The notes beneath the pieces were generated by a model. That model was not told the DNA's origin. It searched no databases and worked only from the letters and a program-made list of their open reading frames with translations. From assembly GCA_029061465.1 (NCBI GenBank), contig JAIDRY010000176.1:1-56047 (forward strand): a stretch of DNA of 56,047 nucleotides, given 5' to 3'. Shown piece by piece: positions 12,879 through 53,635 of this stretch. Positions within the stretch are counted from its first letter, which is position 1; the number at the start of each line of letters is the position of its first letter. A program made the translations under genes and the position numbers. This DNA is from Clostridia bacterium. Its GTDB lineage: Bacteria; Bacillota; Clostridia; Christensenellales; Borkfalkiaceae.

Positions 12879-12911
12879 ATTTGACGATTAATGTAAAACC
12901 TGATTTCAGAC

Positions 12912-12950: not shown

Positions 12951-12953
12951 ATT

Positions 12954-13355: not shown

Positions 13356-13385
13356 AGTAAATCTCCTTATTAAAATATTGTGTAT

Positions 13386-36143: not shown

Positions 36144-36971
36144 ATGAAAAAAGAAAATAATAACGAAATTATTTCAAATTTAAAGTTGGGACAAGAAACC
36201 TTTTCACGCAATATTGGTTTAAGTAAGCAAATATACTTTGGCTTAACTTATGAAGATATTACAAGATATACCGGTATTCCGCAACCTACTATGCTTTCTT
36301 ATGATAAATACTGGGTGTCACCTTATATCTCTGTTGCAAAACAAATAGCAGAATTGTACTGTGTAGATTTAGATACGTTTTGTCGTAAAGATATAGGCTT
36401 TTATAAAGTTGAGCAATTCCAATTGCTTAAAAGATTTGTAAGTAGAGTAGGCGGAGATTACAGCAATATTAAAGAAAAAATAAACGGTTGGATAGAAGAG
36501 CAGTTAAGTGTAAATGAACTCGGTATCTATGAGGAAATAAACAATCAACTAAAAGCAGAGATAGCAAGACTCAATAAAGAAGAACGTGCTGTTGAAATAA
36601 AAAGAGATGACAGAATTGCTGAAAACTTTTCAAGAAACTTTAACAACTTACATAAAAATTTATGTGTCAGTTACAGAAAGATAAGCACTGCATTGGATAT
36701 TTCCATAGGCAACTTAACTCGCCTTAAAAAAGGCGGTGAGCCTATGCTTGAAACTGTTATTAAACTGTCGGCATTTTTCGGTACAACAATAGAGCAAATG
36801 ATTTCAGATAGTCCTGATTTCCATTACGGATACTTGCAACAAGAAGTAGGAAAGTTTAATAATAGATTTGGTGAAATATCTTCTGAAGACATACATTTAT
36901 ATAACCACAAGAAGGCAAATCTATTACCCAAAGAGCAAGCAAAGAAACTTGTTGACGAGTTACTTAATTAA
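36144..36971 (+). CDS. transcriptional regulator with two XRE/Cro-C1-type HTH domains
   Basis: 275 aa. HTH 1 is near LTYEDITRYTGIPQPTMLSYDKY. HTH 2 is near VSYRKISTALDISIGNLTRLKKGGEPMLETVIKLSAFFGTTIEQMI. A coiled-coil linker joins them. Confidence 0.7.
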   Translation: MKKENNNEIISNLKLGQETFSRNIGLSKQIYFGLTYEDITRYTGIPQPTMLSYDKYWVSPYISVAKQIAELYCVDLDTFCRKDIGFYKVEQFQLLKRFVSRVGGDYSNIKEKINGWIEEQLSVNELGIYEEINNQLKAEIARLNKEERAVEIKRDDRIAENFSRNFNNLHKNLCVSYRKISTALDISIGNLTRLKKGGEPMLETVIKLSAFFGTTIEQMISDSPDFHYGYLQQEVGKFNNRFGEISSEDIHLYNHKKANLLPKEQAKKLVDELLN

Positions 36972-37161: not shown

Positions 37162-37689
37162 ATGACAACAAAATTATTTGAACGATTGGTTACAAAATTC
37201 TCTATCAAAGTAACGGATTTAATTAAATATCTAGAGATATCTAAGGCGACAATTTATAATTACCGTAACTTGGATAGATTTGCGGATATTCCCAAGGACA
37301 AGCAGTTAAAGATACTGTATCTTTTCGGTAAAGAAACAGAAGAGGAGCTTGAGCTCGTTTTAGATGAGTCTGATGCTGAGATACTAAATAAATATTTAAA
37401 TCGTATTTCGAGCATATTGACTGACAGTATCAATGGTAAAAAGGAAGAGATAGCATCGCTTGAAGAACTGACAATACAGAATGAAAGATTATTGAAAGAA
37501 AATGCTTCCCTGCAAAGGCAGTTAGTTGCTTTGCAAAAATTTTCCGGTATGGACGAATTTGCACGGGCAATTTTATTTGATAAAGTTTCGGAAATCGTTG
37601 TTGGTGCAAGTGCTGCCGAGATGAAAGAATTTATTGATTACATTGATATTTTTTCTAAATACCGCAAGTACACCGAAAGCAAAAATTAA
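37162..37689 (+). CDS. HTH DNA-binding protein with coiled-coil C-terminal half (first gene of operon A)
   Basis: 175 aa. N-terminal HTH (VTDLIKYLEISKATIYNYRN) followed by a heptad-like region (LEELTIQNERLLKENASLQRQLVALQ). Its stop lies 13 nt before the helicase start. Confidence 0.6.
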   Translation: MTTKLFERLVTKFSIKVTDLIKYLEISKATIYNYRNLDRFADIPKDKQLKILYLFGKETEEELELVLDESDAEILNKYLNRISSILTDSINGKKEEIASLEELTIQNERLLKENASLQRQLVALQKFSGMDEFARAILFDKVSEIVVGASAAEMKEFIDYIDIFSKYRKYTESKN

Positions 37690-37702: not shown

Positions 37703-40700
37703 ATGGCATATCTTTATTTGAATTTTGTTGATAATTTGGAATCGGGAAGTCGTAATCCAAACGATTTATATAACACGTCGCTCAATGAACAATATGAAGC
37801 GCTTAAACGCAAAATTGGCGGAACTTATTCGGGGACATTGCAAGAGTTTATTGCGCATTATTGTCCTATAACTGAAAACGAGTATTATCTATCTTTACCG
37901 AGCTTTGACAGAGGAATACGCACCGTTGTAAATAAAAACGGCAAAGAAAACAAGTACATAAACAATATTATTATCCGCCCGATGAAGAAGAAATACGCAC
38001 ACAACGTGCTACCGGAGAATTACGAATTAATTCTGATTGGTGACGTTATGTTTGGAAGCGTTATTTCGGTTTTGATAAAGGGGATTGATATAATTGACAG
38101 CTCCATCGAAAAATTCGGTGAAATGAGAATCATTTGCACTGCCGCGTGTGCATTTTCGAAAACGATGCTTCGTATGGGGGCAACCGTTCCCGATTATGGC
38201 ACAACGGAATTGCATAATTCAGTGCTGACTAATGACTTTGTTGACGAGCTATGCAATGAATTGTATCCGGTTCCAAATCCGAAAGAAGCCCTGAAAACAT
38301 TTGATGAGTGGCAAAGATACATAGATTTCAGGAAGTATTATTTAAATAAACAATCGGAAAGATGTGAAGCTATTTCTGCTGTGGAAGTTTGCGATTCATA
38401 TATGATATCGCGTGAAGCGTATAGGCGTAATGAGGAAGACTACAAGTCGCTTTTGCTTGATGGTATTCCACAATTTGCAAAGGGTGAGCAGGTAATTCTA
38501 TCAAAAGAAGTTCAGGGTGCAGAGAGCTTCCCTTTGATACGCATAGATATAGATAAAAACCGCAAAGAAGTTTTAAGAGTAACCACGGGGAAGAACGGCA
38601 AAGGTAAACCTAAATTCGAAGCTGATTTAAATAGATATACGCGTGATGCAATGGGATTATCAGCTACCGAGCCGAGATACGTTAACGGCGATTTGCCTAA
38701 GGGATTTCGTTTTTATCAATACGTTTTAGGGGAAAGATATTTATTCACGTCTATTGATATTGAACCTGACTGTGAAGCAATTGATAAAAAATTTGAAAAG
38801 AATTGTAAAACGGCGGAAAAGTCAATCGATGAAAAATACGCTTCTATAATAGCGGTTGAATTAAACCGTTTTATGAACGCGCAAACTCCTGCGGTTACGG
38901 CACGGTATACCAAGCAATTTGACGAATACGTAAGCTCATTAAATAATGCGCTTGAAAACGAAGTTCGTGCAAACAGTGACAAAGAGGTGCAAAAAGAGTT
39001 TGAGCGAGCCGAAAAAGAACTGACTGCGCCGATTAAAAACGTGTTCGAAAGGGAACGCAAAGAATTTGAACGCAAGCTTTCCAAGTTAAACAAGGGTAAA
39101 GACGATAAGGATATTGCGCATATCCAAATCGAAATTTCATTATTGGAAGATAAGTACGAAAAGGATTGTGCGAATGCGACGCGTAAACTGAATATCCGTG
39201 ACTTCTATTTAAAGAGAAACGCGAAATTAATTGACAATAAGCGCAAAAGTACCGATATTGCCCTTCAGGTAGAATTGAAAAGAATAAAACAGGAAAAAGA
39301 AGAGCAATTAAAAGCGCAGTACCGTGAATCAATTCGTGCGGAGAAAGAAACAAGCAAAAAAGAATTGAAGCAAAAGTGTGAGGAGGAAAAGGCATATAAA
39401 ATCGATGACGAAACTATTCGTCGTTATTGCATCTATTTCCGCCCCGACGATACAAATAAAACGCTGAAAAATCTTGAAAAGGAAATCGAGGGATTAGGAG
39501 CCCGCTATCTGACTTATGATAACCGGGCAGAAAAGGCAAAGATAGAACGTCAGGAAAAAGCACTTGCTTCTTTTATGGGCGGTTACGTAAAGAATCCATA
39601 TTTGGCTGCATACTTATTTGCGCCGCAGTCGCTCGGTCAAACACCGAGAGCAGTTGGTCAAGAAATAGATTGGTGTTGTGGTTTAAACGACAGACAACAA
39701 GCAGCTGTAACTAAGGCGCTTGCAAGTGAAAGCTTATTCTTGTTGCAGGGACCTCCGGGAACGGGTAAAACACAAGTAATTGCAGAAATTACCGCACAGC
39801 TTTGTCGCAGAGGGAAGAAGGTTTTAATTTCATCTGAAACGCATAAAGCTATCGATAACGTGTTTGAACGCCTTCCTAAAATTCCGGAAATAAGGCCACT
39901 TAGACTCATTCCGTCGCAAAACGGTAAGGAAACCAATTACAGTCCGGAGAAATTGGTTGATAACTTCTATTTGAATATATCCCGTAACCTTGAAAAGCAG
40001 GTTGACAGGTATGAACACTTTGAGGAAACGAAAGAGTCTTTCAATGAAACAATGAACAAGCTTCGTTTGGGTTACGAAAGAGTTCTAAGGTTAAAAAGAC
40101 AAATCGGGCAAGTGGAGCGTGAACGTAAAGACATTTCCGACAATATAAGCAAATTGAATGAAATAATTGACCGTTTGCGCGGAGAACTGTCCGTAGTGCT
40201 TACAGAAGTAGAACGTTACAAAAGAACGGTAAAATATATTGAAGCATATAGATTTAGTGCCGAAGATGTCAAAGAACAATATATTGAAGCGTTTGTAAGG
40301 AATATAGAAGTTTTACTCTCTAAGTATGATTGTTTTAAAGAATTATCCAAAGAAAAAGCGGGTGAGCTTGTAAAATTAGATTTAACGATGGTAAAGGCTG
40401 AGCTTGAAAAACTTTTGTCGGAAGATGTGCTTGTAAAGCTAAAAAATCGTCAGAAGGAATTAAGAGATATTCTTTCAGAGCTGCGCGACCCTGAAACCGA
40501 CGAAGCTCCTCAGGAAGGCGACGCGCATTTTGCAGAGTATAAAAAATATCAAAGTGAATTAAGATCTGTTGTTAATGATATTAAAAGGGCACAGGAAGAA
40601 AGCGAGTTCGATACGTCGGAAAGTGTTATATTTGCGATTTTGCCGCATATTACTAACGATAAATTGAAAAGGCTGTTAGAAGAGCTTACTGCGTTCAAGA

Positions 40701-42289
40701 TAGAAGCGCAACGCACCGTAATCGAATTCAAAGACAAAATTGAGACGGATATAAAATCCGTTCTTAAAAAGCAAGACGGACTCGAAAGCGATATAAGCGA
40801 GAAGCAGCTTGCTATAAGCGGTGAAAAGAGAAAGTATGAAGAGCTTGGCGAAAATCAAACCCTTGCCGAGTATAATGAGCTTAATTCCGTATTAAAGCAG
40901 AGCGTGTCGCGGTTTATACGTGATTTTAATATCGTGCGCGAATATAATCCCGACGATATGGAAGAGGCGTTCTCAATTATTGCCGAGGAGTGGAAAGCAA
41001 TTGAGAAAGATTATCAATCCACACTGACGGAGAATAAAACCAAAATACCGATGTATCGGGGTATTTGTAAGTATCTTGCACAACCGGACATTTTAGAGGA
41101 GGACAGACAGGCGTATACCCGTGCGCTTTTCGATAATGTCAACGTATTCGGTATAACCTGCACGAGCCGAGATAAATTTACGGATGCCCAGAATGAAGAA
41201 CTTCGCCGCTATGGTATCAAGGACGTAAATATACGAACACAAGGAATTGATGTTGTTATTATAGACGAGGTTTCCAAGTCTGCTTTCCTTGATTTGCTTA
41301 TACCTATTTTGTATGGAAAAACCGTTATACTTGTGGGTGACCACAGGCAGCTTCCGCCGATGTACGATTTGCGCCATATGAGAGCGGACGACTTCGAGGG
41401 GCTGGATGAGAGCATTATCACGAAAGAAATAAACGATAAGTACACGGCTTTATATGAGGAATGTTTCTTCAAAACGTTGTATGAAAAAGTTTCCGATGAT
41501 TTCAGAGTAATGCTCAATAAACAGTATCGTTGCCATAGTCATATTATGGAGGTATTCAATCATTTCTATGGCGGCAGTCAAAAGGGATTGACGGTAGGAA
41601 CAAAGCAGCAGGACAACGAAAAACAGCATAATCTAACGGTTCGTTTTGGCGGAAATACCGTTATAGACCCGCAGCATCATATTTATTTTGTTGATTGTGA
41701 AGAGCGTGAATCGAGTGCTTACGAAGGAAGTACGTCTAAAGTTAACGAGCAGGAAGCGCAGGTCGCAATAGAGTTGTTACGTCAGCTCGATAACGCAAGC
41801 GGAGAGCTCGTTAAATCAGGTAAATTCAAAGTCAATAAAGAAAGACGAATAGATGAGCGTCCGAGCGTTGGCGTTATTTGTACTTACGGTGATCAGGCGG
41901 GACTTATCAAGAAAAAGCGTAAAAACAAACAATTCAATAATTTCTCTGGTAAACAGGACGAAAAACTGATAATAAGTACCGTGGATGATTTTCAAGGTGA
42001 TGAGCGTGATATAATAATCCTTTCTATGGTAAGAAATCCTGCGGGAAAGAATTTCGATTTGGAGTTTCTTAAAAAATTCGAACGTATCAACGTGGCGTTG
42101 TCTCGTGCCAGAAAATTGTTGATAGTGGTTGGTGCGCGTAAATTCTTGTCCGATAACGGTATTATCGATTTGCCCGATTTGGAAGGCAAAGGTAAAGGAC
42201 AGCAGAATTTCCACGTGTACAGGAAAATTATTGACACAATCGATTTCAAAGGAAGAATTATTCCTGCACGTGATATCATAGGAGAATGA
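37703..42289 (+). CDS. large SF1 helicase, Upf1/DNA2-like (AAA_11/AAA_12 type), with ~680-aa N-terminal extension and ~500-aa coiled-coil insertion
   Basis: Walker A LLQGPPGTGKTQ (GPPGTGKT = 39749..39772, K689). Walker B VVIIDEVSK (DE = 41264..41269, D1188). Motif III LVGDHRQLPPM, motif IV-like QYRCHSHI, motif V STVDDFQGDERDIIILS, motif VI RINVALSRARKLLIVVG. Confidence 0.85.
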   Translation: MAYLYLNFVDNLESGSRNPNDLYNTSLNEQYEALKRKIGGTYSGTLQEFIAHYCPITENEYYLSLPSFDRGIRTVVNKNGKENKYINNIIIRPMKKKYAHNVLPENYELILIGDVMFGSVISVLIKGIDIIDSSIEKFGEMRIICTAACAFSKTMLRMGATVPDYGTTELHNSVLTNDFVDELCNELYPVPNPKEALKTFDEWQRYIDFRKYYLNKQSERCEAISAVEVCDSYMISREAYRRNEEDYKSLLLDGIPQFAKGEQVILSKEVQGAESFPLIRIDIDKNRKEVLRVTTGKNGKGKPKFEADLNRYTRDAMGLSATEPRYVNGDLPKGFRFYQYVLGERYLFTSIDIEPDCEAIDKKFEKNCKTAEKSIDEKYASIIAVELNRFMNAQTPAVTARYTKQFDEYVSSLNNALENEVRANSDKEVQKEFERAEKELTAPIKNVFERERKEFERKLSKLNKGKDDKDIAHIQIEISLLEDKYEKDCANATRKLNIRDFYLKRNAKLIDNKRKSTDIALQVELKRIKQEKEEQLKAQYRESIRAEKETSKKELKQKCEEEKAYKIDDETIRRYCIYFRPDDTNKTLKNLEKEIEGLGARYLTYDNRAEKAKIERQEKALASFMGGYVKNPYLAAYLFAPQSLGQTPRAVGQEIDWCCGLNDRQQAAVTKALASESLFLLQGPPGTGKTQVIAEITAQLCRRGKKVLISSETHKAIDNVFERLPKIPEIRPLRLIPSQNGKETNYSPEKLVDNFYLNISRNLEKQVDRYEHFEETKESFNETMNKLRLGYERVLRLKRQIGQVERERKDISDNISKLNEIIDRLRGELSVVLTEVERYKRTVKYIEAYRFSAEDVKEQYIEAFVRNIEVLLSKYDCFKELSKEKAGELVKLDLTMVKAELEKLLSEDVLVKLKNRQKELRDILSELRDPETDEAPQEGDAHFAEYKKYQSELRSVVNDIKRAQEESEFDTSESVIFAILPHITNDKLKRLLEELTAFKIEAQRTVIEFKDKIETDIKSVLKKQDGLESDISEKQLAISGEKRKYEELGENQTLAEYNELNSVLKQSVSRFIRDFNIVREYNPDDMEEAFSIIAEEWKAIEKDYQSTLTENKTKIPMYRGICKYLAQPDILEEDRQAYTRALFDNVNVFGITCTSRDKFTDAQNEELRRYGIKDVNIRTQGIDVVIIDEVSKSAFLDLLIPILYGKTVILVGDHRQLPPMYDLRHMRADDFEGLDESIITKEINDKYTALYEECFFKTLYEKVSDDFRVMLNKQYRCHSHIMEVFNHFYGGSQKGLTVGTKQQDNEKQHNLTVRFGGNTVIDPQHHIYFVDCEERESSAYEGSTSKVNEQEAQVAIELLRQLDNASGELVKSGKFKVNKERRIDERPSVGVICTYGDQAGLIKKKRKNKQFNNFSGKQDEKLIISTVDDFQGDERDIIILSMVRNPAGKNFDLEFLKKFERINVALSRARKLLIVVGARKFLSDNGIIDLPDLEGKGKGQQNFHVYRKIIDTIDFKGRIIPARDIIGE

Positions 42290-42290
42290 T

Positions 42291-44498
42291 ATGGAAGAGA
42301 AAATAATAAAACAGATAAAAACTCAATGCCCTTTTCCGCTGTTGATTTATAAGACGCGTATTAAGTATAACGAAGTGCGTAAAGCTTCGGGCATAGCATA
42401 TATTCTATTAGAGCTTATCACCAAGCAACGTTCGGATATGCGTTTTCGTGAAGCATTGTTAAAATTCGGAATACCGGCAGAACTTCACAGTTTGTTTGGA
42501 AGTGAACTTGCTGGCTTAGTCAATAATGAAATAGTTCAGGCAAACTATCCTGCATCGCACTTTGCAAATCCTAAATATTTCGGTGAAATCCAAGTCAACG
42601 ACGTTACTCTTACTGTTAAGGGACAAAAACTGTTCCGCGAGGGCGCAATTCCTACGGGACAGGAGAAGGAAAGGCCAAAGGATATTTATTTCAGTCCCGT
42701 AACGCGTAAATTCGAAGTGCAGTATAATATGCCGTATTCGCCGATTTCCGGTAGTTTTTTGGGCGAGGAGTTTTTGGACAAAGTAGATATTGATATCAGC
42801 GGTTTAGAAGATTATATTAATGCGAATCCCACGAAATTAGGATTGAAAGCCGAAGAGCGTATGATATCTTTTGCAACGGACGAACCGCAAAAAATGAATG
42901 TCCGAAAAGAAGATAACATCACTTTAAATATCTACCCGTCGTTTATAGAGTTTATGTTTGCTGATTCGGCAGAAAGGGCATTCTTTGATAAATATTACTC
43001 TTCTTCGATAATGACGAATGGTATGACCATGAAAGATAAGTTTAAATTCCCTAAGTTAAATGGGAATTTGCTGTCTGTTAATATAACGGATATACGCAAT
43101 CTTACTGCGCTTTATTTACCTAACGAGCTAACCAAACAGGCAGGGCGGCAATGTGTAATATTCTTGCATAGAGGTAATGCGGGTTTAGAACGTGACGATG
43201 TGATTTGCGCGGACAAGCGGTTTGCTTGTGAATTACTTGATAAAATAGACAAAAATGCGCAATTCGCGTTGTTGGACAAGTCAGGGTGCAAAATTTTTTG
43301 TGCGGTAAATGTAGTTATGCCGTGCAAGAATTTCGGAGATGTGCTTACTCTACCACTTTTGACAGAAAGCAATGCGTCCCTCGAAACGTTCCGTGGAATA
43401 GTTGACTGTCTCTATAATGAATACGCAGAAAAACCGTTCGACGACGATGTCGGCAAGGTTGTGTCGTACGCAGTTGAGAGCTTGGGTAATACTGAATACT
43501 TCGGTAAAATAATCAAGAAGAAATTGCAATCGGTAGTCAGGGTGGATGAACGGATAGAAATATTATTAAAGCTGAATTCGGCTTTCAAAAAATATCCATC
43601 GTGGAAAAATGACTTTACGGAAGCGGCTATCGGGCTTTATAACGAAAGCGTGAGCGAAGTTAAAATTGAAAATATCATTTATAAAAATACTGTTTTGACT
43701 CCGCTGAAAGGTGCCCTGCAAATTTCCAATTCGGAATACGTTCGCAAGTTTTCTGAAAACATTTGTAAAACCGAATCCAAAGAAATTGTTTACGAAGCAC
43801 TTGATTCTGCGGGCTTTACCGATATGGAAACACTGTCGGTTGCAAACGTAATAGAAACGTTTATGTCAAACGTTTTAGCAAGAGAAGTAATTGCTTCCGA
43901 AACCGTGCTTGCTTCCAAATATAAGACGGTACATACAAATCTTTGGAAGTTGTGTGATATGCTTGGTATTGAAAACAGCGCGGAATATACCTTGCGCGAA
44001 GATTACAATACAGATGACTTCTTTAATGCCTACGCCACGCTACAAAACGTAATAAAAGCAGTAGAGAAATATAGACCTTTTGCGCCCAAAGAATATGAAT
44101 TATTGGGGCGATATCTTGAGATATTCGAGCCGATTCACGAGCTTTTGTCTATCGAATGTACCGCTTCGGCAAATCCCGAAAAGATTACAAAAAAATATAT
44201 TGACGATTATATCACAAGAGGAAAGTATAAGGACGCAATTTGCGATTTGCTTGTAAAGCTGCAATATGATTTAAGAAAACTTTTGCAGGCAGACAGAGAA
44301 ACGCAAGCCAACGAACTTATTGATATGGCGCTTAACGAAAAGCTTATTTCTAAACCGCAAGTTGATGTGTTACATAAACTGCGTATGTGCAGAAACGGTT
44401 TTCAACATCCCGAGCGAAAACAAATTCCGTTCGATAAACCCACAATAGAAAATTGGCGAGATATCGTATTTATGTTAGGAGGGAAAAATGAGTCATAG
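42291..44498 (+). CDS. 735-aa uncharacterised protein with C-terminal RNxxxH (HEPN-like) motif
   Basis: The start lies 1 nt after the helicase stop, with an AGGAG SD. No known N-terminal domain recognised. The C-terminal helical region ends in LHKLRMCRNGFQHPE, where R701-N-G-F-Q-H706 is encoded at 44391..44408. Confidence 0.6.
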   Translation: MEEKIIKQIKTQCPFPLLIYKTRIKYNEVRKASGIAYILLELITKQRSDMRFREALLKFGIPAELHSLFGSELAGLVNNEIVQANYPASHFANPKYFGEIQVNDVTLTVKGQKLFREGAIPTGQEKERPKDIYFSPVTRKFEVQYNMPYSPISGSFLGEEFLDKVDIDISGLEDYINANPTKLGLKAEERMISFATDEPQKMNVRKEDNITLNIYPSFIEFMFADSAERAFFDKYYSSSIMTNGMTMKDKFKFPKLNGNLLSVNITDIRNLTALYLPNELTKQAGRQCVIFLHRGNAGLERDDVICADKRFACELLDKIDKNAQFALLDKSGCKIFCAVNVVMPCKNFGDVLTLPLLTESNASLETFRGIVDCLYNEYAEKPFDDDVGKVVSYAVESLGNTEYFGKIIKKKLQSVVRVDERIEILLKLNSAFKKYPSWKNDFTEAAIGLYNESVSEVKIENIIYKNTVLTPLKGALQISNSEYVRKFSENICKTESKEIVYEALDSAGFTDMETLSVANVIETFMSNVLAREVIASETVLASKYKTVHTNLWKLCDMLGIENSAEYTLREDYNTDDFFNAYATLQNVIKAVEKYRPFAPKEYELLGRYLEIFEPIHELLSIECTASANPEKITKKYIDDYITRGKYKDAICDLLVKLQYDLRKLLQADRETQANELIDMALNEKLISKPQVDVLHKLRMCRNGFQHPERKQIPFDKPTIENWRDIVFMLGGKNES

Positions 44499-45600
44499 TG
44501 TTGAAATAGATTATCAAGGGCTTGCAATTCAATGCAATAGTGTTTGTGAAGTTGCGGAAAAACGATTGCAAGAGTTGGACGAAATGATTGCAAAAGCAGA
44601 GAGCGCTTCAAGCCGTTTATTAAACGACCAATCTGCACAATTTGTCAAAATGATTTATGAAGAAAGAAAACGACTGGAAAAACAAATCAAAGCCGTTCGA
44701 CAAAGTGCTGAGGGAAAAGCTAAGCGCGGAGTTGTGCGTGTTGATAATGAAAGTGCAGAATATAGACATTCGAACGACAATATTCTGGCTGCGGGGAATT
44801 TGCAACACACCATTGACGAGCTTGCTTCTAAACGATTGATTGAATTTCAAAGTCTTTTGCAAACCCTTTTAGGTGAAAGTATACAAGAACACCAGCGTAA
44901 ACTGCGTGAACAAACTAACGGTGCAATAACGGTTGATTCTCACACTCAATCACACTTGGACAAGATTGAAGACGAGGTTCTTCGCCAGTTTACTTATCTT
45001 GCATATTTGAATGACAATACACTTTCGGGCGATGAATTGTTGCAAGCGGGACAAGTGCTTATGATGCAGAGAGTAAATCAAACTTATGAAGAGCGTTATG
45101 AACAAGAACGTGCAAAAATCCGTGCCGAACTTGAAGCTTCGCGTGTTGCCCCCGAAACGGTGGATAAAGTGCTGAATAAAACACAAGGCACGGCACAAGA
45201 AAAACTTACGTCAATTCGCCAAAATGCTACTGCCGAAATTGTCGGTGAAAAGGTGCGTCAGAAGTCGCTTAAAATTATAATGGACGCTATCAAACAACGT
45301 GGATTTGTTGTTGACAAGAAGAACGTTAAAATTAAACGAGATACAAATGAAGTTGTTTTGGTTGCATTAAAGGCAAGCGGAGAAAAAGCGGAGTTTCGAA
45401 TATTCCTCGATGGTAAATTCATTTACGATTTCCATGGTTATGAGGGACAGGCTTGTCAAAAGGATATAGAACCGTTTATGCACGATTTGGAAGAAGTATA
45501 CGGCATAAAAGTAACCAAACAAACAGAAATCTGGAGCAATCCTGATAAAATTTCTACTATGAAGTATCAGGCAATAAACACCAATAAGAATAAAAGATAA
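44488..45600 (+). CDS. 370-aa coiled-coil protein with small C-terminal alpha/beta module
   Basis: Its ATG overlaps the upstream stop by 11 nt, with a GGAGGG SD. Long heptad-rich, Gln/Glu/Lys-rich helices span aa ~20-260. The C-terminal ~100 aa read IMDAIKQRGFVV...EFRIFLDGKFIYDFHGYEGQACQKDIEPFMHDLEEVYGIKV. Confidence 0.55.
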   Translation: MSHSVEIDYQGLAIQCNSVCEVAEKRLQELDEMIAKAESASSRLLNDQSAQFVKMIYEERKRLEKQIKAVRQSAEGKAKRGVVRVDNESAEYRHSNDNILAAGNLQHTIDELASKRLIEFQSLLQTLLGESIQEHQRKLREQTNGAITVDSHTQSHLDKIEDEVLRQFTYLAYLNDNTLSGDELLQAGQVLMMQRVNQTYEERYEQERAKIRAELEASRVAPETVDKVLNKTQGTAQEKLTSIRQNATAEIVGEKVRQKSLKIIMDAIKQRGFVVDKKNVKIKRDTNEVVLVALKASGEKAEFRIFLDGKFIYDFHGYEGQACQKDIEPFMHDLEEVYGIKVTKQTEIWSNPDKISTMKYQAINTNKNKR

Positions 45601-45611
45601 GGAGAAATATA

Positions 45612-47444
45612 ATGGCACTTACTACAACCTTTAACAGATTAAGACGTGAAATTGGTATTAAAAGATGTGTAATCGTTGAGGGAAACGTCGGCGACGTTTA
45701 TTTAAATGAGAAGAAACAAATAGTTGACTTGAAGCAGTATCTTATGGATATGCTTAAAGCTATTGACTACGATGATGTGCTTTATTGGGATAGAATTGAC
45801 GGTGTGGACGGAGACATATCTCGCCTTTCGGTTATCGATGAAGTGGAAGTAGAGGGTGAAGCTTATGTCTTTTATGATGAAGACGATAAGTCAGAAAAAG
45901 AACAAAAGACAGGCAGCGGACTTTTCAAAGAGCCCGCCGAGATATTTAATATCATTTTTAAAAATTTGAAAAAGCCCAACCGCAAAACCGCATTTGTTTT
46001 GAACTGGGCAGATTATTTGTTTACGACGGGTGGGCAACTGCCGCCCGACGAGCGTGAACTTATTACGCTTCTTGGGAAAGCAATCAAGGATAAAAAAGTT
46101 GACTATCTTTCTGCTGAAGTGAATGAAAGTACAATCGTACTCATTACGAGCAAGCTTGCTATGTTCCCGATATCGTTCTATCAGGGCAATCCCGAAGTGT
46201 CTTGTCTCACGCTTTCAAAGCCCGACAGAGAAGAACGCGAAAAAATGATGGATAAAGTGGAAAGCGGATTTGAGGTTAAGTTAAAACCCGGCGAAACACT
46301 TATGACTTGCGAAAAGAAGAATGAGTATATCGATATGCTTGATGATTTTACAAACCGTGAAATTATTCAGCTTGCGAGACTTTCACGCAAAGAGGGTAAA
46401 ATGCCATTTGAACAGTTATATCTGTTGTTCAAGTACGGTGAAAAGGATAACCCTTGGGAAAAACTTGACTATAAGGCTGTAAAAGATATTAAGAAAATTC
46501 TTGCCGAGCGGGTAGTCGGACAGGAAGAAGCCATCGAAAAAATTGAGAAAGTCGTTGTGAAGGCGTATATGGGGCTTACCGGAATCCATAAATCTTCCAG
46601 TCGTTCCGCGCCCAAAGGTGTGTTGTTCTTCGTCGGTCCTACCGGTGTTGGTAAAACCGAACTTTCAAAAGCTCTTGCAAAATTTCTGTTCGGTGACGAG
46701 CAGGCTTGTATTCGCTTTGATATGTCAGAGTATGCGCAGGAAAACAGTGACCAAAAGCTTATCGGTGCGCCTCCCGGATACGTGGGATATGAAGAGGGCG
46801 GTCAGCTTACAAATGCAGTAAAAGAAAAGCCGTTCAGTATTATTCTGTTCGACGAGATAGAAAAAGCAGCAAAGCCTAATCCCCGTATTTTGGATATTTT
46901 CTTGCAAATTCTTGAAGACGGACGTCTTACCGACAGTAAGGGTGAAACGGTTTATTTCAGTGAAAGCGTTATTATCTTTACGTCAAACCTCGGCGCTTCG
47001 GAAGTGGCTTCGGGCGGTTCCAACGAACAGGTTGCCAAGGAGTTTATTGATATTGTCAAAAACTATTTCGACAATGAAATCAAGCGCCCCGAAATTTTGG
47101 GACGTATCGGTTACAGCAATATAGTTCCGTTCAATTTCATCAAAGACAGGGATTTTACCGTTAAAATAGCAAAATCAAAACTTCGTCCTGTTCAGAAAGC
47201 GATTCTCGAAAAATATAGGATAGACCTAATTTTTGAAGATGAACTGAAATTTATTGACTATATTTTGGGCGGTGCGGATAGCAGTAAGGGTGGTCGTGAT
47301 ATTCTTAATGCAATCAATGATAAGCTTTTGGACGAGCTTGCAATGTTTATGTTCGAAAACAAGCAGGATTTATCGTCGTTCAAGGGCGCAAAAATCGTAG
47401 TCAGCGTATCGAAAGATAAACTGCATTTTGAATTTGATGATTAA
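45612..47444 (+). CDS. AAA+ ATPase with Clp/Hsp100 D2-type module and degenerate N-terminal AAA-like domain
   Basis: The C-terminal half is colinear with ClpB/ClpA D2: VVGQEEAIEKI, Walker A GPTGVGKT (46635..46658, K348), IRFDMSEY, GAPPGYVGYEEGGQLT, Walker B ILFDEIEKA (D414/E415), ILEDGRLTD, sensor-1 IIFTSNLG. The N-terminal ~290 aa lack Walker motifs. Confidence 0.85.
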   Translation: MALTTTFNRLRREIGIKRCVIVEGNVGDVYLNEKKQIVDLKQYLMDMLKAIDYDDVLYWDRIDGVDGDISRLSVIDEVEVEGEAYVFYDEDDKSEKEQKTGSGLFKEPAEIFNIIFKNLKKPNRKTAFVLNWADYLFTTGGQLPPDERELITLLGKAIKDKKVDYLSAEVNESTIVLITSKLAMFPISFYQGNPEVSCLTLSKPDREEREKMMDKVESGFEVKLKPGETLMTCEKKNEYIDMLDDFTNREIIQLARLSRKEGKMPFEQLYLLFKYGEKDNPWEKLDYKAVKDIKKILAERVVGQEEAIEKIEKVVVKAYMGLTGIHKSSSRSAPKGVLFFVGPTGVGKTELSKALAKFLFGDEQACIRFDMSEYAQENSDQKLIGAPPGYVGYEEGGQLTNAVKEKPFSIILFDEIEKAAKPNPRILDIFLQILEDGRLTDSKGETVYFSESVIIFTSNLGASEVASGGSNEQVAKEFIDIVKNYFDNEIKRPEILGRIGYSNIVPFNFIKDRDFTVKIAKSKLRPVQKAILEKYRIDLIFEDELKFIDYILGGADSSKGGRDILNAINDKLLDELAMFMFENKQDLSSFKGAKIVVSVSKDKLHFEFDD

Positions 47445-47982
47445 GTTTAACATTGCAAGTATCAATCAATGTACCGAAGTAGAAGGACCGTATAAAAGAC
47501 TATGCATTTGGTTTCAAGGTTGCAATATTCACTGCAAAGGATGTTGTAATCCTGATTACCAGCCGCTCGTGCCGAAGAATATACTTTCGCTTGACAAATT
47601 AATTTTGATTATAGCTGAAGCAAAAGAAAAATTCGGAATAGAGGGAGTAACCTATTCGGGTGGAGAGCCCACTTTGCAACAAAGTTTGTCTCAGCTTACC
47701 GAAGAGATACATAAGCTTGGGTTAGGCGTTATATCGTTTACAGGTAGAAACTACGAGGAAGTAAAAGAAGTTTTGTGCGGTTGTGATGCAGTATTGGACG
47801 GAGCTTTCATCAAGGAATTGCCCGAAACAAAGCGCCGTATACTCGGTTCTTCAAATCAGCGCATATTATGTTTAACTGATAGATATAAAGATTGTATTGA
47901 TAGGTGGTTTACAAGTATCGGATTAAAGACAGAAGAAATTAATGTCGGCAATAGTATAGTAGTGAACGGTGATAAGTTTTGA
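47437..47982 (+). CDS. NrdG/PflA-type radical-SAM activase-like protein (4Fe-4S single-cluster family)
   Basis: EGPYKRLCIWFQGCNIHCKGCCNP, with CxxxCxxC encoded at 47521..47544. SAM-binding-like GVTYSGGEP. C-terminal NrdG-like LDGAFIKE...ILGSSNQRIL. The ATG at 47437 overlaps the upstream stop (ATGATTAA). The ORF track uses an upstream TTG at 47428. Confidence 0.8.
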   Translation: MIKFNIASINQCTEVEGPYKRLCIWFQGCNIHCKGCCNPDYQPLVPKNILSLDKLILIIAEAKEKFGIEGVTYSGGEPTLQQSLSQLTEEIHKLGLGVISFTGRNYEEVKEVLCGCDAVLDGAFIKELPETKRRILGSSNQRILCLTDRYKDCIDRWFTSIGLKTEEINVGNSIVVNGDKF

Positions 47983-48536: not shown

Positions 48537-49196
48537 ATGAAATGTCTTTATGAGTTAAATGTTGAGCAGCTTTATAAACTAGTTGAAGAAGATTTGAGCC
48601 TTGATGGCTGGATTATCTGGAACGAGACCCTTGCGAAGCGAACGGAGTCCGCGCGAGAGCTTAAGCGGTTTGATATTATAAAAGATAAAGCAATCGAACA
48701 AGGTTTTATTAATATTGATAATGAAATTGTTACATGGTTTGATACTTTAACTATGTTATACCGTTCGCTCAAAAATATCAGTGATTTAGAATTAAAAGAC
48801 AATTTAAAAATATTCCAAGAATTCCGTATGCCGTATTCTCGAAGAAGAGCAGATTATGTGCTTGTATATGATAACAAAATTTTAATTTTAGAGTTTAGTT
48901 TTGATAAACTTGGATATGCGCAGAAATATGAAGACAAATTACAGCAGGCAAGTAGTTACAAAGAAATACTAGGAGTATTTTTACCAAAAGAAATAGATAT
49001 AGGCACATATACATTTTTGATTGATCCAGACGAAGATAAAGACGGCAGATTTATTTACGATCCAGAAACCAAACGTCGAGTAAATGATGATAAAGTAGAA
49101 GAACTGGCAACAGTGATAGTAAAATTTTTCAAAAAGAATTTAAAGTCGGCATATAACGCATTAAAGCATTTAGATTATGGCGATGGGAATGGGTAA
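48537..49196 (+). CDS. hypothetical protein with PD-(D/E)xK-like core pattern
   Basis: 219 aa. FQEFRMPYSRRRADYVLVYDNKILILEFSFDK fits the E...D...(E-x-K) layout of restriction-endonuclease-fold domains. The final triad reads E-F-S, with a K four residues later. Confidence 0.4.
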   Translation: MKCLYELNVEQLYKLVEEDLSLDGWIIWNETLAKRTESARELKRFDIIKDKAIEQGFINIDNEIVTWFDTLTMLYRSLKNISDLELKDNLKIFQEFRMPYSRRRADYVLVYDNKILILEFSFDKLGYAQKYEDKLQQASSYKEILGVFLPKEIDIGTYTFLIDPDEDKDGRFIYDPETKRRVNDDKVEELATVIVKFFKKNLKSAYNALKHLDYGDGNG

Positions 49197-49242: not shown

Positions 49243-52200
49243 ATGCTAAAAATAGGATTATACGAACAAGTCATAAATAAGCTATTGGATAAAGAGCTGT
49301 CCGAAAATGAAGATAAGCTCAGTCAGACTGCGCATATCGATGAAGGCGAAGCATCTAAAATTCTTTCACAATATATAGCTGAAATTATAGAAAAGGGGCT
49401 TGATTATGTCCACGATAAAGGCGGAAATGTTCAAGACCAAATTCAACTTATAAATCGAATTGTCTCAACAATTATTTCGGAAACAAAAGAGGCGGACTTT
49501 AATGAGCTATCAGTTGCAGAGCGTGCTGAACAACTTTTAGCACTCTTGAATAAAAGGGATACTATCTTAGCAATTAATGAAAAGGCGGAAATAGTTCGTC
49601 CCGAAACATCAATTGCTCAGAGTTCGCTTTTTACTGGAGCAATTAATGAACCTCAGATGTTCAACGAATTGAATAAGGAAATTGTTTCAAGCGATAGAAT
49701 TGATATGCTGGTTTCCTTTATAAAGTGGAGCGGATTGAGGCTCATTATCGACGAGTTGAAAAAATTTACTCAACGCGGTGGAGAACTTCGTATAATAACA
49801 ACTTCGTATATGGGTGCTACCGACATAAAGGCAGTAGAAGAGCTTAGTAAGCTTCCCAATACAAAAATTAAAGTCAGCTACGATACAAAGCGTACACGTC
49901 TTCACGCAAAAACTTATGTATTTTATCGTGATACAGGTTTTACGACCGCATATGTAGGTTCTTCCAACCTTTCAAATGCAGCAATATCGTGTGGCCTGGA
50001 ATGGAATGTTAAGGTAACAAGAAAGGACTTGCCAGAAACTATAGCAAAAATTAAGGCAACATTTGAGAGCTATTGGAATTCAAACGAGTTTGAATTTTTC
50101 TCGGAAGGGCAGAGGGATCGTCTTGTACATGCGTTAAAAGCTGAAAAGTTTTCGGATAGTAATAGTGAGAAATTATATACATTTGACATATCGCCATATT
50201 CATACCAGCAAGAAATATTGGACAAGTTGGAAGCGGAACGAACAATTCATGGGCGCCATCGCAATTTAATTGTTGCGGCGACGGGGACAGGTAAAACAGT
50301 TATTTCAGCATTTGATTATAAAAGGTTTAAGAATCAAAATTCTAATAATGCTTGCAAATTATTGTTTGTTGCACATAGAGAAGAAATCTTGAATCAGAGT
50401 ATAGAAACATTTCGTGGGATTTTGAAGGATGCGAACTTTGGTGATCTATTTGTAGGCAATTATAAACCTGAATCCATTGATAATCTGTTTATATCAATCC
50501 AGACATTTAATTCGCAAGATTTTACTTCTAAGACTAGCCCAGACTTTTATGATTATATAATTGTCGATGAATTTCATCATGCGGCGGCTCCCACATACCA
50601 AAAGTTACTTACATATTATAAGCCTAAAATACTGCTAGGTTTAACCGCCACGCCTGAACGTATGGATGGCAAAAACATATTGGAGTATTTTGGTAATAGT
50701 ATTGCGGCAGAAATCAGGCTTCCTGAAGCTATTGATAGGAAATTGCTTTGTCCTTTCCAATATTTCGGTGTAACAGATATTGTTGGCCTCGATGATATAA
50801 AGTGGAGTAGAGGCGGCTACGATAAGGATGAGCTATCCAATATTTATACGATAAACGAAGAAACCGCAGTGCGTCGTGCCGACTACATAATTGCATCAAT
50901 TTTGAAATATGTGACTGATATAGATGAAGTTAAAGGACTTGGATTTTGTGTATCAATTGAACACGCGAAGTTCATGTCAAATTATTTTAATAACCACGGT
51001 ATCCCTTCAATGTATCTTGTTGGCAGCTCGTCAGATGATGAAAGAAAGAGCGTAAAGAAGAAGCTGGTAAACGGAGAAATTAGATTTATCTTTGTTGTTG
51101 ATATTTATAATGAGGGTGTAGATATCCCTGAGGTTAATACTGTCTTATTCCTTCGGCCCACTGAGTCGTTGACAATATTTTTGCAACAGCTCGGACGCGG
51201 CTTACGTCTTTCAGAAGGGAAAGAATGTTTGACGGTACTTGATTTTATTGGACAAGCAAATAAGAGATATAATTTTGAAGATAAGTTTGCGGCTCTTTTA
51301 TCAAATACTACCCGCAGTATTCAACGCGAAATAAAAGACGGCTTTGTATCTGTTCCTAAGGGATGTTATATCCAACTTGAAAAGAAAGCGCAGAAATACA
51401 TTTTAGAAAATATTCGCGCGTCGTTAAATTCGAAGAGTGGTCTATTGGCAAAAGTTAAAACATTTGAAACCGAAAGCGGGTTAAAGCTTTCGTTAATAAA
51501 TTATATCCATTATTATCACATCGATGTAAGGACGATCTATAATAAAAAATTAACATTTTATTCAATGTGTGAGCAGGAAGGGTTATGGCAATCAACTGAC
51601 CATATTTTTGATGATCCATTTAGAATTTTATTTCACTTTTGTTGTGTTGACTCAATTAAATGGATTAATTTTGTTTTATCTGAATTGCGAAATGGAGAAT
51701 TCAATAAATTGAATTCTTATAACGAAGAACAACAATTAATGGTTAAAATGTTATACTCCTCAATCTGGGATAAGACTCCTAAAACAGAAGGATTTATTGA
51801 TGAAATAGAAGCGTTAAACTTTTTGTTTAAAGATAAATACTTTATTGAAGAACTTATAGAATTGCTTTGCTTATGTAAGAAAGATGTAAATATTGTTGGG
51901 CGAGATCCTGAATTGGATTATATTTGTCCATTAGAAGTGTACTGTACTTATACTCGCGATCAAGTGCTGGCTGCGTTAGGATTCAACGAGGATTATACTG
52001 TTTCGGAAGGTGTCAAGTATTTTAAGGATAAAAATACAGATGTACTGTTTACAACACTTAATAAAACAGATAAGTTTTATTCTCCGACTACAGCATATAA
52101 TGATTATTCGATTAATGAAGAACTGTTTCACTGGCAAAGTCAAAGTACAACATCAGACACTTCATTAACCGGGTTAAGATATATAAATCAAGATAATAAC

Positions 52201-52389
52201 AGTAACAACATATTACTTTTTGTGCGTGAACAAAAGTCAGATAAATTTGGGCCACAGCCTTTTATTTTCCTTGGTAAAGTACATTATGTTCAGCATGAGG
52301 GAAGTAGACCTATGAACATAGTTTGGCAATTGGATAATAATATACCAGCTAAATTTTTATCAAAAACAAATAAATTAATTTTGGGATAA
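49243..52389 (+). CDS. SauUSI-like enzyme: PLD (HKD) nuclease + SF2 helicase + C-terminal DUF3427
   Basis: HKD motif RLHAKTYVFYRDTGFTTAYVGSSNLS (H221, 49903..49977). Walker A AATGTGKT (50275..50298). DEFHH box (50566..50580). Motif VI QQLGRGLRL. The C-terminal ~250 aa follow the DUF3427 pattern (FHWQSQSTTS..., ILLFVRE, PFIFLGKVHYVQHEGSRPMNIVWQLDN). Confidence 0.85.
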   Translation: MLKIGLYEQVINKLLDKELSENEDKLSQTAHIDEGEASKILSQYIAEIIEKGLDYVHDKGGNVQDQIQLINRIVSTIISETKEADFNELSVAERAEQLLALLNKRDTILAINEKAEIVRPETSIAQSSLFTGAINEPQMFNELNKEIVSSDRIDMLVSFIKWSGLRLIIDELKKFTQRGGELRIITTSYMGATDIKAVEELSKLPNTKIKVSYDTKRTRLHAKTYVFYRDTGFTTAYVGSSNLSNAAISCGLEWNVKVTRKDLPETIAKIKATFESYWNSNEFEFFSEGQRDRLVHALKAEKFSDSNSEKLYTFDISPYSYQQEILDKLEAERTIHGRHRNLIVAATGTGKTVISAFDYKRFKNQNSNNACKLLFVAHREEILNQSIETFRGILKDANFGDLFVGNYKPESIDNLFISIQTFNSQDFTSKTSPDFYDYIIVDEFHHAAAPTYQKLLTYYKPKILLGLTATPERMDGKNILEYFGNSIAAEIRLPEAIDRKLLCPFQYFGVTDIVGLDDIKWSRGGYDKDELSNIYTINEETAVRRADYIIASILKYVTDIDEVKGLGFCVSIEHAKFMSNYFNNHGIPSMYLVGSSSDDERKSVKKKLVNGEIRFIFVVDIYNEGVDIPEVNTVLFLRPTESLTIFLQQLGRGLRLSEGKECLTVLDFIGQANKRYNFEDKFAALLSNTTRSIQREIKDGFVSVPKGCYIQLEKKAQKYILENIRASLNSKSGLLAKVKTFETESGLKLSLINYIHYYHIDVRTIYNKKLTFYSMCEQEGLWQSTDHIFDDPFRILFHFCCVDSIKWINFVLSELRNGEFNKLNSYNEEQQLMVKMLYSSIWDKTPKTEGFIDEIEALNFLFKDKYFIEELIELLCLCKKDVNIVGRDPELDYICPLEVYCTYTRDQVLAALGFNEDYTVSEGVKYFKDKNTDVLFTTLNKTDKFYSPTTAYNDYSINEELFHWQSQSTTSDTSLTGLRYINQDNNSNNILLFVREQKSDKFGPQPFIFLGKVHYVQHEGSRPMNIVWQLDNNIPAKFLSKTNKLILG

Positions 52390-52393
52390 GCAT

Positions 52394-53635
52394 ATGAGAA
52401 TAGTAGACTTGTTTTCGGGGGCCGGTGGGTTAACATTCGGGTTTTATTATAAATTAGACAACGGTAGATTTGTTAAAAAGGATAATGCAATAATATTTGC
52501 TAATGAATTTAACAAAAATGCTGCAGCTGCTTATAAAAAAAATTATACTAATGTAAATATGATTGTTGGCGATATCCGTGAAGTTCTCACTGACGAATTA
52601 ATTAGAGAAAAGATAGGGAATGAGGAAGTTGACTTAATTATTGGTGGACCACCTTGTCAATCGTTTAGTACGGTTGGTAAAAGAATATATGATGAAAAGG
52701 CTAAGCTTTTTTGGGAGTATTTGCGACTTATTAGAGTAGTAAGACCGAAGATGTTTTTATTCGAAAATGTAAAAGGTTTATTATCTATGAAAGAGGTATT
52801 CTATAAAAAAGATGAGAATGGAGAAATTTTAAAAGAAAAGAAGCAAATTGGGCATGAAGGTGGAAAACAAAGGACAATAGAAGTTCCAATTGTTGACCAT
52901 TATGGCAAAAAAATTATAGATATCATTAAAAAAGAATTTGGGGATGTAGATAAAGATCTTGGATATGATATTGAATCACAAGTGGTAGATGCGGTGAATT
53001 TCGGTGTGCCTCAAAATAGACAGCGTGTGGTTATTTTAGGAGTACGTAAAGATTTGGGGGTTAAAATTCCAAAATTTGAAAGTGGTAACAAAACTGAATT
53101 GACAATTAGAGATGCGATTTCTGATTTGCCAGTTGTTAACGAAGGCGAAGAAATAAAGTGCTATGATTGTAAACCTCAAAATGTTTATCAAAGATTAATG
53201 CGAGGGGATAATAAAGTATTGCGAGATCACAGCTGTGGAACTTATGGGGATAAAATTCGAACTGTTATACAACATGTAAAACAAGGGCAAGGTCGAAACG
53301 ATTTTAATGCTTTAGTTGATGCAGGGAAAATAGATAAAAAGTATTATTTAACTTCTGGCTATAAAAATACTTATGGTAGGCTTGAAGAAAATAAACCGTC
53401 TACTACTATAACGAATAATTTATCTACGCCTTCAGGATTAAGATGTATTCATTATTCACAAGATAGGGCGCTGACATCGCGTGAAGGTGCTAGAATACAA
53501 TCATTCCCAGATTGGTTTTATTTTGAAGGAAAAAGCAGGGCAGAAATAAATACACAAATCGGTAATGCCGTGCCACCATTAATGGCAATGGCGATAGCAA
53601 GAATAATTGAAAAAGTTTTAGGGGGAGGTAATTAA
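52394..53635 (+). CDS. dcm: DNA (cytosine-5)-methyltransferase
   Basis: Motif I DLFSGAGGLTFGF. Motif IV GGPPCQSFS (catalytic Cys codon 52655..52657). Motif VI ENVKGL. Motif VIII QNRQRV. Motif X GNAVPPLMA. Its start lies 4 nt after the upstream stop. Confidence 0.93.
   Translation: MRIVDLFSGAGGLTFGFYYKLDNGRFVKKDNAIIFANEFNKNAAAAYKKNYTNVNMIVGDIREVLTDELIREKIGNEEVDLIIGGPPCQSFSTVGKRIYDEKAKLFWEYLRLIRVVRPKMFLFENVKGLLSMKEVFYKKDENGEILKEKKQIGHEGGKQRTIEVPIVDHYGKKIIDIIKKEFGDVDKDLGYDIESQVVDAVNFGVPQNRQRVVILGVRKDLGVKIPKFESGNKTELTIRDAISDLPVVNEGEEIKCYDCKPQNVYQRLMRGDNKVLRDHSCGTYGDKIRTVIQHVKQGQGRNDFNALVDAGKIDKKYYLTSGYKNTYGRLEENKPSTTITNNLSTPSGLRCIHYSQDRALTSREGARIQSFPDWFYFEGKSRAEINTQIGNAVPPLMAMAIARIIEKVLGGGN

Follow-up and report, generated by a model that had tools for sequence, protein, structure and literature searches.

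A candidate HEPN ribonuclease subunit of a putative five-gene conflict cassette in Clostridia

A short string of residues near the end of a large, unassigned bacterial protein raises the question of whether it marks the active site of a ribonuclease (RNase) and, if it does, which system that enzyme serves. The string occurs in the window, by which we mean the whole analyzed stretch of 56,047 nucleotides (contig JAIDRY010000176.1, positions 1 to 56,047 of the forward strand; assembly GCA_029061465.1, Clostridia bacterium). In the window sequence an open reading frame (ORF) at 42291..44498 (+) begins with ATG and encodes a protein of 735 amino acids (aa), in which R701-N-G-F-Q-H706 (44391..44408, +; codons AGA AAC GGT TTT CAA CAT) forms a predicted catalytic motif of the Rx4H type. 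This candidate HEPN protein comprises an N-terminal docking-type module, a variable middle and a C-terminal HEPN domain. An earlier note, made from the sequence alone, had placed the ORF and the motif at these coordinates and with these codons, and both are as claimed. Our reading, drawn from sequence comparison and predicted structure, is that the 735-aa protein is probably (about 0.65) the nuclease subunit of a horizontally mobile conflict cassette of five genes, most likely directed against phages or plasmids.

The C-terminal domain and its RNxxxH motif

Taken alone, the RNGFQH string is suggestive and weak evidence for a HEPN domain. When the composition of the 735-aa protein is shuffled, chance accounts for 0.049 occurrences per protein of the strict pattern R[NHQD]xxxH and 0.87 of the loose pattern Rx4-6H. 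The idea that RNxxxH is a chance string in an ordinary helical tail draws on this second figure, and on the failure of the window protein by itself to match any HEPN model; the low expectation for the strict motif speaks against it, and so do the relatives. The protein had been labeled an orphan in the earlier note, a label that no longer holds, as at least 569 homologues were found, and 192 clusters at 50% identity. The 569 came from a word-indexed search, are all unnamed or 'hypothetical', and derive from Clostridia or Clostridiales metagenome bins. The 192 clusters (E<=1e-3; 97 at E<=1e-30) came from an exhaustive hidden Markov model (HMM) search of 1.84 billion cluster representatives, and most of them are full length at 700-750 aa. 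Close relatives (17 at 54-79% identity) show no variation in the block LHxLRxCRNGFQHP. In a conservation alignment of 75 full-length representatives at 17-51% identity only 8 columns are at least 90% conserved, and R701 (72/75), N702 (70/75) and H706 (74/75) provide three of them. Conservation of the Arg and the His in homologues was a check named in the earlier note, and it came out in favor of the motif, which we regard as real because it is kept in relatives at this distance. Relatives also pass the DUF4145 threshold, and the conservation data already refute a chance origin, to which we give next to no credence.

A census of the domain was made in 83 full-length cluster representatives, 81 of which possess it. 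The strict motif R[NDHQ]xxxH is found in 72 of these 81 representatives with a HEPN core. Five of the nine exceptions, read by eye, keep the Rx4-6H spacing (77/81 in all), one of them having the motif in its first HEPN repeat. Three members (P0201, P0206 and P0244; 860-901 aa) present a second, degenerate HEPN-like repeat without R...H behind the catalytic one. This repeat may build an intramolecular pseudo-dimer, and tandem repeats in three members would be consistent with a need for HEPN pairing.

The assignment to HEPN is made on account of the sequence profiles of the relatives together with the conservation of the motif. When 40 isolated C-terminal domains were scanned singly, 33 matched Pfam DUF4145 (best E 8.6e-7), with further matches to HEPN_RiboL-PSP (10), HEPN_Apea (7), HEPN_Swt1 (3), HEPN_MAE_28990 (2) and HepT-like (2) families. 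Among 60 full-length relatives, 33 matched DUF4145 at E<=0.1 (best 1.2e-7), and no other family recurred. The DUF4145 gathering score was passed by five of nine relatives inspected (28.3, 23.9, 29.4, 25.4 and 24.9 bits), in alignments spanning model positions ~6-85 of 88; these correspond to window residues ~641-721 and include the motif. DUF4145 (PF13643) lies within the HEPN clan (CL0291), whose motif is Rx4-6H with a polar residue following the Arg and in which a second motif, Ex3[KR], is often present (PMC3710099). The counterpart of the second motif in the window protein is Q658-Y-D-L-R662 (44262..44276, +). It is partly conserved: among the 75 relatives position 658 is E in 41, Q in 22 and D in 6, and position 662 is K in 23 and R in 16. 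The relatives' matches and the domain model place the C-terminal HEPN domain, of DUF4145 type, at aa ~641-728 (44211..44474, +), and the window protein appears to be a divergent relative of DUF4145 rather than a scored member.

The predicted structure is consistent with this assignment and lends it weak support. A model of aa 565-735 alone (predicted local distance difference test, pLDDT, 92.6; predicted template-modeling score, pTM, 0.85) begins with a long helical hairpin and continues as a compact bundle with helices at aa 646-665, 673-682, 688-705 and 716-730. RNGFQH sits at the end of the penultimate helix of this all-alpha domain. The helical character that the earlier note had ascribed to the C-terminal part is thus seen in the AlphaFold models. 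Foldseek comparison of the domain model with the Protein Data Bank (PDB) placed HEPN-type entries at all of the top 23 ranks, with probability up to 1.00. They include AF_0298, SO_3166/HepT toxins, YutE, TM0613, Cas13b, MtlR and a cyanobacterial HEPN toxin. These matches are weak by score, with a best E of 0.058 (none <=1e-3), target-normalized TM values of 0.41-0.57 and a root-mean-square deviation of at least 5 Å. The fold check proposed in the earlier note accordingly returned a helical bundle with HEPN-type entries on top, at weak E values (>=0.058). A search of viral structures with the same model was uninformative. Against PDB sequences, profiles of the C-terminal domain and the full family found only noise and a match of a BAR-protein coiled coil to the helical hairpin (E ~1e-3), and we judge these compositional. 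The HEPN-domain profile searched against a set of 5.8 billion proteins recovered fragments of the same family only, and no other architectures.

A HEPN fold for the C-terminal domain is very likely. That the domain is an active RNase is likely as well. Precedent exists in the DUF4145 protein RAZR (PD-T7-4), for which experiments have established an anti-phage RNase activity dependent on its Arg and His (PMC13017515). The proposal that a HEPN-type domain ends this large, helicase-coupled protein as a candidate RNA-cleaving effector is supported, with the motif conserved and the relatives matching HEPN models.

The five-gene cassette and its PIN-ended counterpart

The earlier note had pictured a pair of helicase and effector. 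The comparisons point instead to a conserved cassette of five genes, of which the 735-aa protein would be one subunit. The first gene (37703..42289, +) encodes a superfamily 1 (SF1), Upf1/MkoA-like helicase of 1528 aa, with no assignment for its N-terminal ~650 aa. It matches Pfam AAA_11 (1.2e-26) and AAA_12 (2.5e-39) and the PADLOC model MkoA (6.4e-93), and stays below the NCBIfam cut-offs for the IGHMBP2 family (7.6e-50) and PLuB_AAA (5e-46). Its stop codon TGA (42287-42289) is separated by one base from the ATG of the 735-aa gene at 42291, and an AGGAG lies within the 3' end of the helicase gene ahead of that start; the tight coupling of the two genes described in the earlier note is there. 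The third gene (44488..45600, +) starts with an 11-nt overlap with the end of the 735-aa gene and has a GGAGG ahead of it. Its 370-aa product has a coiled-coil-like N-terminal part and a conserved C-terminal domain (aa ~255-360), and matched nothing in Pfam, PADLOC, NCBIfam, PHROGs or the PDB.

The fourth gene (45612..47444, +) encodes an AAA+ ATPase of 610 aa that joins a unique N-terminal domain (aa 1-290) to a ClpB-D2-like module. It matches AAA_2 (4.3e-50), scores 2.9e-74 with the ClpB model, which is far below the cut-off of that model, and has invariant Walker A (GPTGVGKT) and Walker B (FDEIEKA) motifs. The fifth gene (47437..47982, +) encodes an NrdG/PflA-like radical S-adenosylmethionine (SAM) protein of 181 aa, with conserved CX3CX2C and GGEP motifs and matches to Fer4_12 (3.3e-22) and Radical_SAM (5.5e-11). 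It reaches 77 bits with the NrdG model against a cut-off of 126, and is below the PflA cut-off also. Its ATG at 47437 overlaps the stop of the ClpB-like gene by 8 nt (ATGATTAA); the automatic ORF call starts at TTG 47428. A target of the radical SAM protein encoded within the cassette was considered and rejected, as none of the six cassette proteins holds a strict or loose glycyl-radical motif RVxG[FYW]. The sixth of these is a variable accessory, a small upstream ORF of 175 aa (37162..37689, +) with no family match above noise. The junctions between the cassette genes support co-translation of their predicted products.

The comparison that bears most on the role of the C-terminal domain comes from Proteobacteria. 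The N-terminal domain of the ClpB-like ATPase has relatives at 26-29% identity on annotated plasmids. We inspected four lineages, represented by Acinetobacter pNDM1_010055, conjugative plasmids of Moellerella, Polaromonas pPNAP02 and a plasmid of Photobacterium, and in each of them the five genes recur with their order unchanged. In phmmer comparisons with the plasmid genes the helicase matches at 1e-59 to 1e-69 and the ~375-aa protein at 1e-20 to 1e-23, and the ATPase and radical SAM proteins are homologous. The second position is held by a protein of 699-821 aa annotated as 'PIN domain-containing'. In the two that were scanned, PIN_4 lies at the extreme C-terminus (aa 581-707 of 720, 1.5e-19; aa 651-771 of 800, 4.6e-22), and for the other two the PIN domain is known from annotation alone. 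The acidic residues D583, E612, D614, D670 and D691 of the PIN region are invariant. A search of E. coli genomes with the PIN-variant DNA (blastn) gave no match. In the Acinetobacter plasmid (L025) the PIN-type cassette is directly followed, at 11718-13700, by genes for a small AAA ATPase, a second radical SAM protein and a hypothetical protein, which may be an additional radical SAM module.

The HEPN-ended and PIN-ended proteins are related through their N-termini. By hhalign, 60 members of the HEPN family align with the four PIN proteins over aa 10-286 and 5-273, respectively (96%, E 4.4e-9), and the alignment is retained with a single PIN sequence (88.5%, E 2.7e-6). The two proteins appear to be one scaffold with alternative C-terminal domains, both of them RNase-type nuclease folds, and the common N-terminus suggests itself as the part that plugs into the remaining machinery. 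A swap of HEPN and PIN on a common N-terminus argues for a catalytic effector role of the C-terminal domain; it is our strongest comparative argument. Together with the retrieval of the HEPN fold from the domain model, it further backs the candidate-effector claim of the earlier note.

That note had also stated that the ~650 residues before the HEPN domain match nothing. It was right in that they belong to no recognized family, and wrong for the N-terminal ~280 aa, which are homologous to the N-terminus of the PIN proteins. This N-terminal conserved module (aa ~10-286; 42318..43148, +) contains, at aa 33-121, the first of two conservation hot spots of the protein, with 15 columns at least 80% conserved; the second is at the active-site motif. 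The middle (43149..44210, +) evolves fast and has no recognizable family. A beta-rich domain (aa ~203-363), helical repeats (aa ~364-560) and a long helical hairpin (aa ~574-627) can be distinguished among its parts. Column entropy in the family peaks in the middle (3.0 bits), and residues 203-560 are the most variable of the protein. Confidence in the full-length AlphaFold model is good over aa ~260-730, with pLDDT >85 for most of the middle, and from aa 364 on the model contains helices only. The whole protein, compared with the PDB by Foldseek, gave insignificant TPR/solenoid matches only. Segments aa 1-32 and 122-202 have low pLDDT; they are conserved among close relatives, and aa 122-202 are variable across the family.

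Distribution, island and proposed working

Synteny was followed in contigs of metagenomes and in genomes representing species (17 loci). On every contig of sufficient length the order is constant (helicase, HEPN protein, ~365-aa protein, ClpB-like ATPase, radical SAM protein). It is kept in all 17 species-level genome loci, and the flanks vary between loci. Host bins carry the labels Clostridiales, Clostridia, Eubacteriales, Christensenellales, Candidatus Scatosoma and Candidatus Flemingiibacterium, and further hosts are Ruminococcus, Lachnospiraceae and Oribacterium. The 370-aa protein is syntenic in all loci at 40-74% identity, and the 175-aa ORF is present at 64-91% identity in five (L001, L002, L008, L009 and L011) and was not detected in the others. 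The ClpB-like ATPase is the slowest-evolving gene of the cassette (68-93% identity where the HEPN protein has 27-77%) and the HEPN protein the fastest. At the greatest distance from the window (L017-L020) the identities are 41% for the helicase, 27% for the HEPN protein, 40-45% for the 370-aa protein, 68-70% for the ATPase and 46-48% for the radical SAM protein. Fast evolution of this kind is typical of conflict interfaces.

The last three genes seem to be a separable module. In L022 (8881-12461) and L023 these three genes (370-aa protein, ClpB-like ATPase and radical SAM protein; the trio) adjoin a type I-C CRISPR-Cas system without the helicase and HEPN genes. The ATPase gene of the trio is split there into 470 + 155 aa. 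A further locus (L024, 7700-9523) holds the full cassette with a HEPN protein of 22% identity; the ClpB-like gene is split elsewhere (316 + 279 aa), and many fragments of 300-400 aa of this ATPase are present in the protein database. The fragments may reflect recurrent gene splitting, decay or assembly errors. The Aristaeella lactis plasmid NZ_CP069422.1 (L027, 4585-15999) carries the radical SAM and ClpB-like AAA+ pair in reversed order, within an operon of conflict type that encodes a DUF4011 (Hhe-like) helicase, two protein kinases, an FHA protein, a Ser/Thr phosphatase and DUF6273; the two genes together have the appearance of a mobile module.

Several observations weigh against the 735-aa protein as the nuclease subunit of a conflict cassette. 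The protein matches nothing in Pfam, PADLOC, NCBIfam, PHROGs or the sequences of the PDB. Its isolated C-terminus finds no Pfam match even at E<=10, and it falls below the DUF4145 gathering threshold of 23.1 bits. Since it matches no model, the assignment to HEPN is transitive, by way of relatives, and the Foldseek matches are as weak as stated above. Ex3[KR] is kept only in part, as Q...R in the window protein, and a few family members are without the R or the H. Two members, P0258 (691 aa) and P0266 (664 aa), have no HEPN core at all. As the trio exists without helicase and HEPN genes, that module can do without the HEPN protein, and no cassette gene is a recognized member of a validated defense system. 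In P0258 and P0266 the conserved N-terminal module is kept and the C-terminal halves are unrelated, ending in a basic tail; they may represent a third effector or a regulatory variant.

Some of these points favor the view that the HEPN domain is inactive, or a binding, sensor or dimerization domain, with the effector being another component such as the radical SAM chemistry or the ClpB-like unfolding. Non-catalytic binding modules are numerous among HEPN domains (PMC3710099), conservation of the ClpB-like and radical SAM genes far exceeds that of the HEPN protein and their module exists alone, and the two members without HEPN and the degenerate Ex3[KR] fit as well. However, non-catalytic HEPN domains typically lose Rx4-6H (PMC3710099), and in this family no residues of the C-terminal half are better conserved than R, N and H. 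The presence at the same position of PIN, another nuclease fold with invariant acidic residues, would also be hard to explain for a position that calls for a binding module alone. We consider an inactive domain improbable, and return to the HEPN protein as effector of an immune or conflict system, which sequence comparison makes rather probable.

The setting in the window and elsewhere bears on the kind of system. At ~32 kb the GC content drops from ~0.47-0.50 to 0.32-0.40, with no recovery before the window end. A tRNA-Leu gene (32485-32571) lies at the drop, and beside it is an integrase N-terminal (SAM-like) fragment with no catalytic domain detected (33629-34339, -). By these features the cassette is placed on an acquired low-GC island at 32485-56047 of the window. 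Upstream of the cassette is a gene for a 275-aa protein with weak helix-turn-helix (HTH)/repressor-like matches (36144-36971, +). Downstream, a 219-aa ORF with a weak match to PADLOC PDC-S41 (2.4e-8; 48537-49196) separates it from a gene for a type IV methyl-directed restriction enzyme of 1048 aa (49243-52389, +; PLD, helicase and DUF3427; PADLOC mREase_IV 1.7e-219). A C5 cytosine DNA methylase of 413 aa (52394-53635, +) and a 734-aa protein with two HATPase domains (53636-55840, +) follow. The genes at 49243-55840 are a second defense cluster on the same island.

With these neighbors, a scheme of modification and restriction can be considered, in which the trio marks self RNA, DNA or protein by radical chemistry and the helicase and HEPN protein attack unmarked foreign nucleic acid, giving selective restriction and not abortive infection. 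The island does hold methylation-dependent restriction and methylase genes. The trio occurs alone near CRISPR-Cas in L022 and L023, as orphan modification modules do, and the radical SAM and ClpB-like pair is found in other helicase-based conflict systems. With no glycyl-radical target in the cassette, the radical SAM protein must have a different target. Against this scheme, no known nucleic-acid-modifying radical SAM family was matched, the best matches being glycyl-radical activases below their cut-off, HEPN enzymes are not known to read modifications, and the scheme is pure inference from gene order. It strikes us as a poor candidate.

The distribution of the cassette is patchy across distant phyla. 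Its contexts elsewhere include SIR2+DUF87, nSTAND3, CRISPR I-C, ArdA and conjugative plasmids. When the HEPN protein was searched by tblastn in collections of phages and plasmids, nothing matched. Presence on plasmids and islands would also suit a mobile-element addiction module, or a module for stress or RNA quality control that rides on these elements and has no part in immunity. Upf1-like helicases and ClpB-like ATPases have housekeeping relatives, and no validated defense model was matched as a whole. This explanation meets the recurrence of defense neighbors (type IV restriction, C5 methylase, SIR2+DUF87, nSTAND3 and CRISPR-Cas), the anti-restriction gene ardA near one plasmid copy, and the patchy distribution over distant phyla. 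It also meets a nuclease subunit that evolves very fast and swaps its nuclease domain, as is typical of conflict systems. We judge a non-immune role to be distinctly improbable.

A working model for the 735-aa protein as nuclease subunit can now be outlined. R701, N702 and H706 would form a metal-independent RNA-cleaving site, which, from what is established for HEPN domains, would be complete only when two of them pair. The N-terminal ~280 aa would be a docking module that ties the nuclease to the upstream Upf1/MkoA-like helicase; we assign this role because the module is common to the PIN-ended proteins. The fast-evolving middle may regulate or sense, and the low-confidence segments aa 1-32 and 122-202 may fold on a partner. 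A helicase that has recognized foreign RNA or intermediates of replication would release or assemble the RNase, which would cut RNA of the invader and/or the host and stop the infection, with dormancy or death of the host as a possible result. Abortive infection specifically, the outcome that the earlier note had favored, is possible, and we hold it somewhat doubtful. More speculative, and on balance unlikely, is a larger scheme. A Mokosh-like helicase, an exchangeable RNase (HEPN or PIN), a ClpB-like unfoldase and an NrdG-like radical SAM enzyme lacking a glycyl-radical partner would in that scheme make up a new immune system spread across phyla, with radical chemistry on protein or nucleic acid gating, arming or complementing RNA cleavage. 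We know of no mechanism gated by radical chemistry in this way that has been described in prokaryotic immunity.

What is described here includes a divergent branch of HEPN/DUF4145 RNases, as predicted, that current models miss, the window protein being invisible to Pfam. The cassette spans gut and rumen Clostridia, and its PIN-ended form is found on proteobacterial plasmids, an NDM-1 plasmid among them; from its genes and their setting it looks like an uncatalogued bacterial immune system. If defense against phages or plasmids is indeed its function, it offers a tractable case for the control of RNase effectors by a helicase sensor and for the role of a small activase-like radical SAM enzyme in immunity. 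The natural exchange of HEPN and PIN is a ready-made handle on effector modularity.

Likeness to known systems

The five-gene cassette is absent from PADLOC 2023 and NCBIfam 2026, and no description of it was found in the open-access literature text that was searched. It can nonetheless be set beside several known systems.

At the level of the domain, HEPN-MNT (HepT-MntA) and the Cas13/Csm6 effectors supply the best structural matches of the model (E >=0.058) and share the motif type. HEPN-MNT and Cas13/Csm6-type HEPN effectors need HEPN pairing for activity. Each protein here has a single HEPN domain, and the window shows no CRISPR association. Classification as a HEPN-MNT toxin-antitoxin was considered and rejected, as no nucleotidyltransferase family is present in any neighboring ORF.

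RAZR and other DUF4145 proteins share with the window protein a small all-helical domain and a conserved R-[N/D/H]-x3-H late in that domain. Helicases and restriction components are the typical company of DUF4145 domains, either fused to them or encoded alongside (PMC3710099). The two differ in build: RAZR is a single gene with a zinc-finger N-terminus, while the window protein has ~640 otherwise unassigned residues and belongs to a five-gene operon.

Mokosh combines an Upf1-like (COG1112) RNA helicase with a PLD nuclease, and in type I the helicase protein has an extra kinase domain (bioRxiv 10.1101/2022.05.11.491447). The window resembles type I in that its helicase matches MkoA (6.4e-93) and a separate nuclease-bearing protein comes next. 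The helicases of the plasmid cassettes are strong MkoA matches too. The presumed logic is also common to both, with an RNA helicase that senses or feeds and a nuclease that executes. The second Mokosh protein, MkoB, shows a trace of relationship: aa 8-191 of the Acinetobacter PIN protein align with MkoB positions 6-189 (E 1.1e-5), one of two PIN proteins matching. The link of the HEPN N-terminus to MkoB is transitive only, through the N-terminus of the PIN proteins, and the MkoB model matched none of 60 HEPN-family members (0/60). Whereas the Mokosh nuclease is PLD, the window cassette has HEPN (PIN in Proteobacteria) and three further conserved genes. Membership in Mokosh was rejected, with no PLD match in the 735-aa protein and no kinase among the Pfam matches of the helicase. 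By this analysis the cassette seems to be like Mokosh in its working, an RNA helicase with a separate nuclease, and not a member of it.

A counterpart by gene content is the PIN-ended cassette (Acinetobacter WP_004826985.1, Polaromonas WP_011798092.1), whose proteins are annotated 'PIN domain-containing protein' or 'AAA family ATPase' and carry no system name. It differs from the window in having PIN_4 in place of HEPN, in middle regions that are not alignable, and in its hosts, Proteobacteria versus Clostridia. What the two have in common is the gene order, a second protein of similar size with a homologous N-terminal ~260-280 aa, and four other genes that are homologous.

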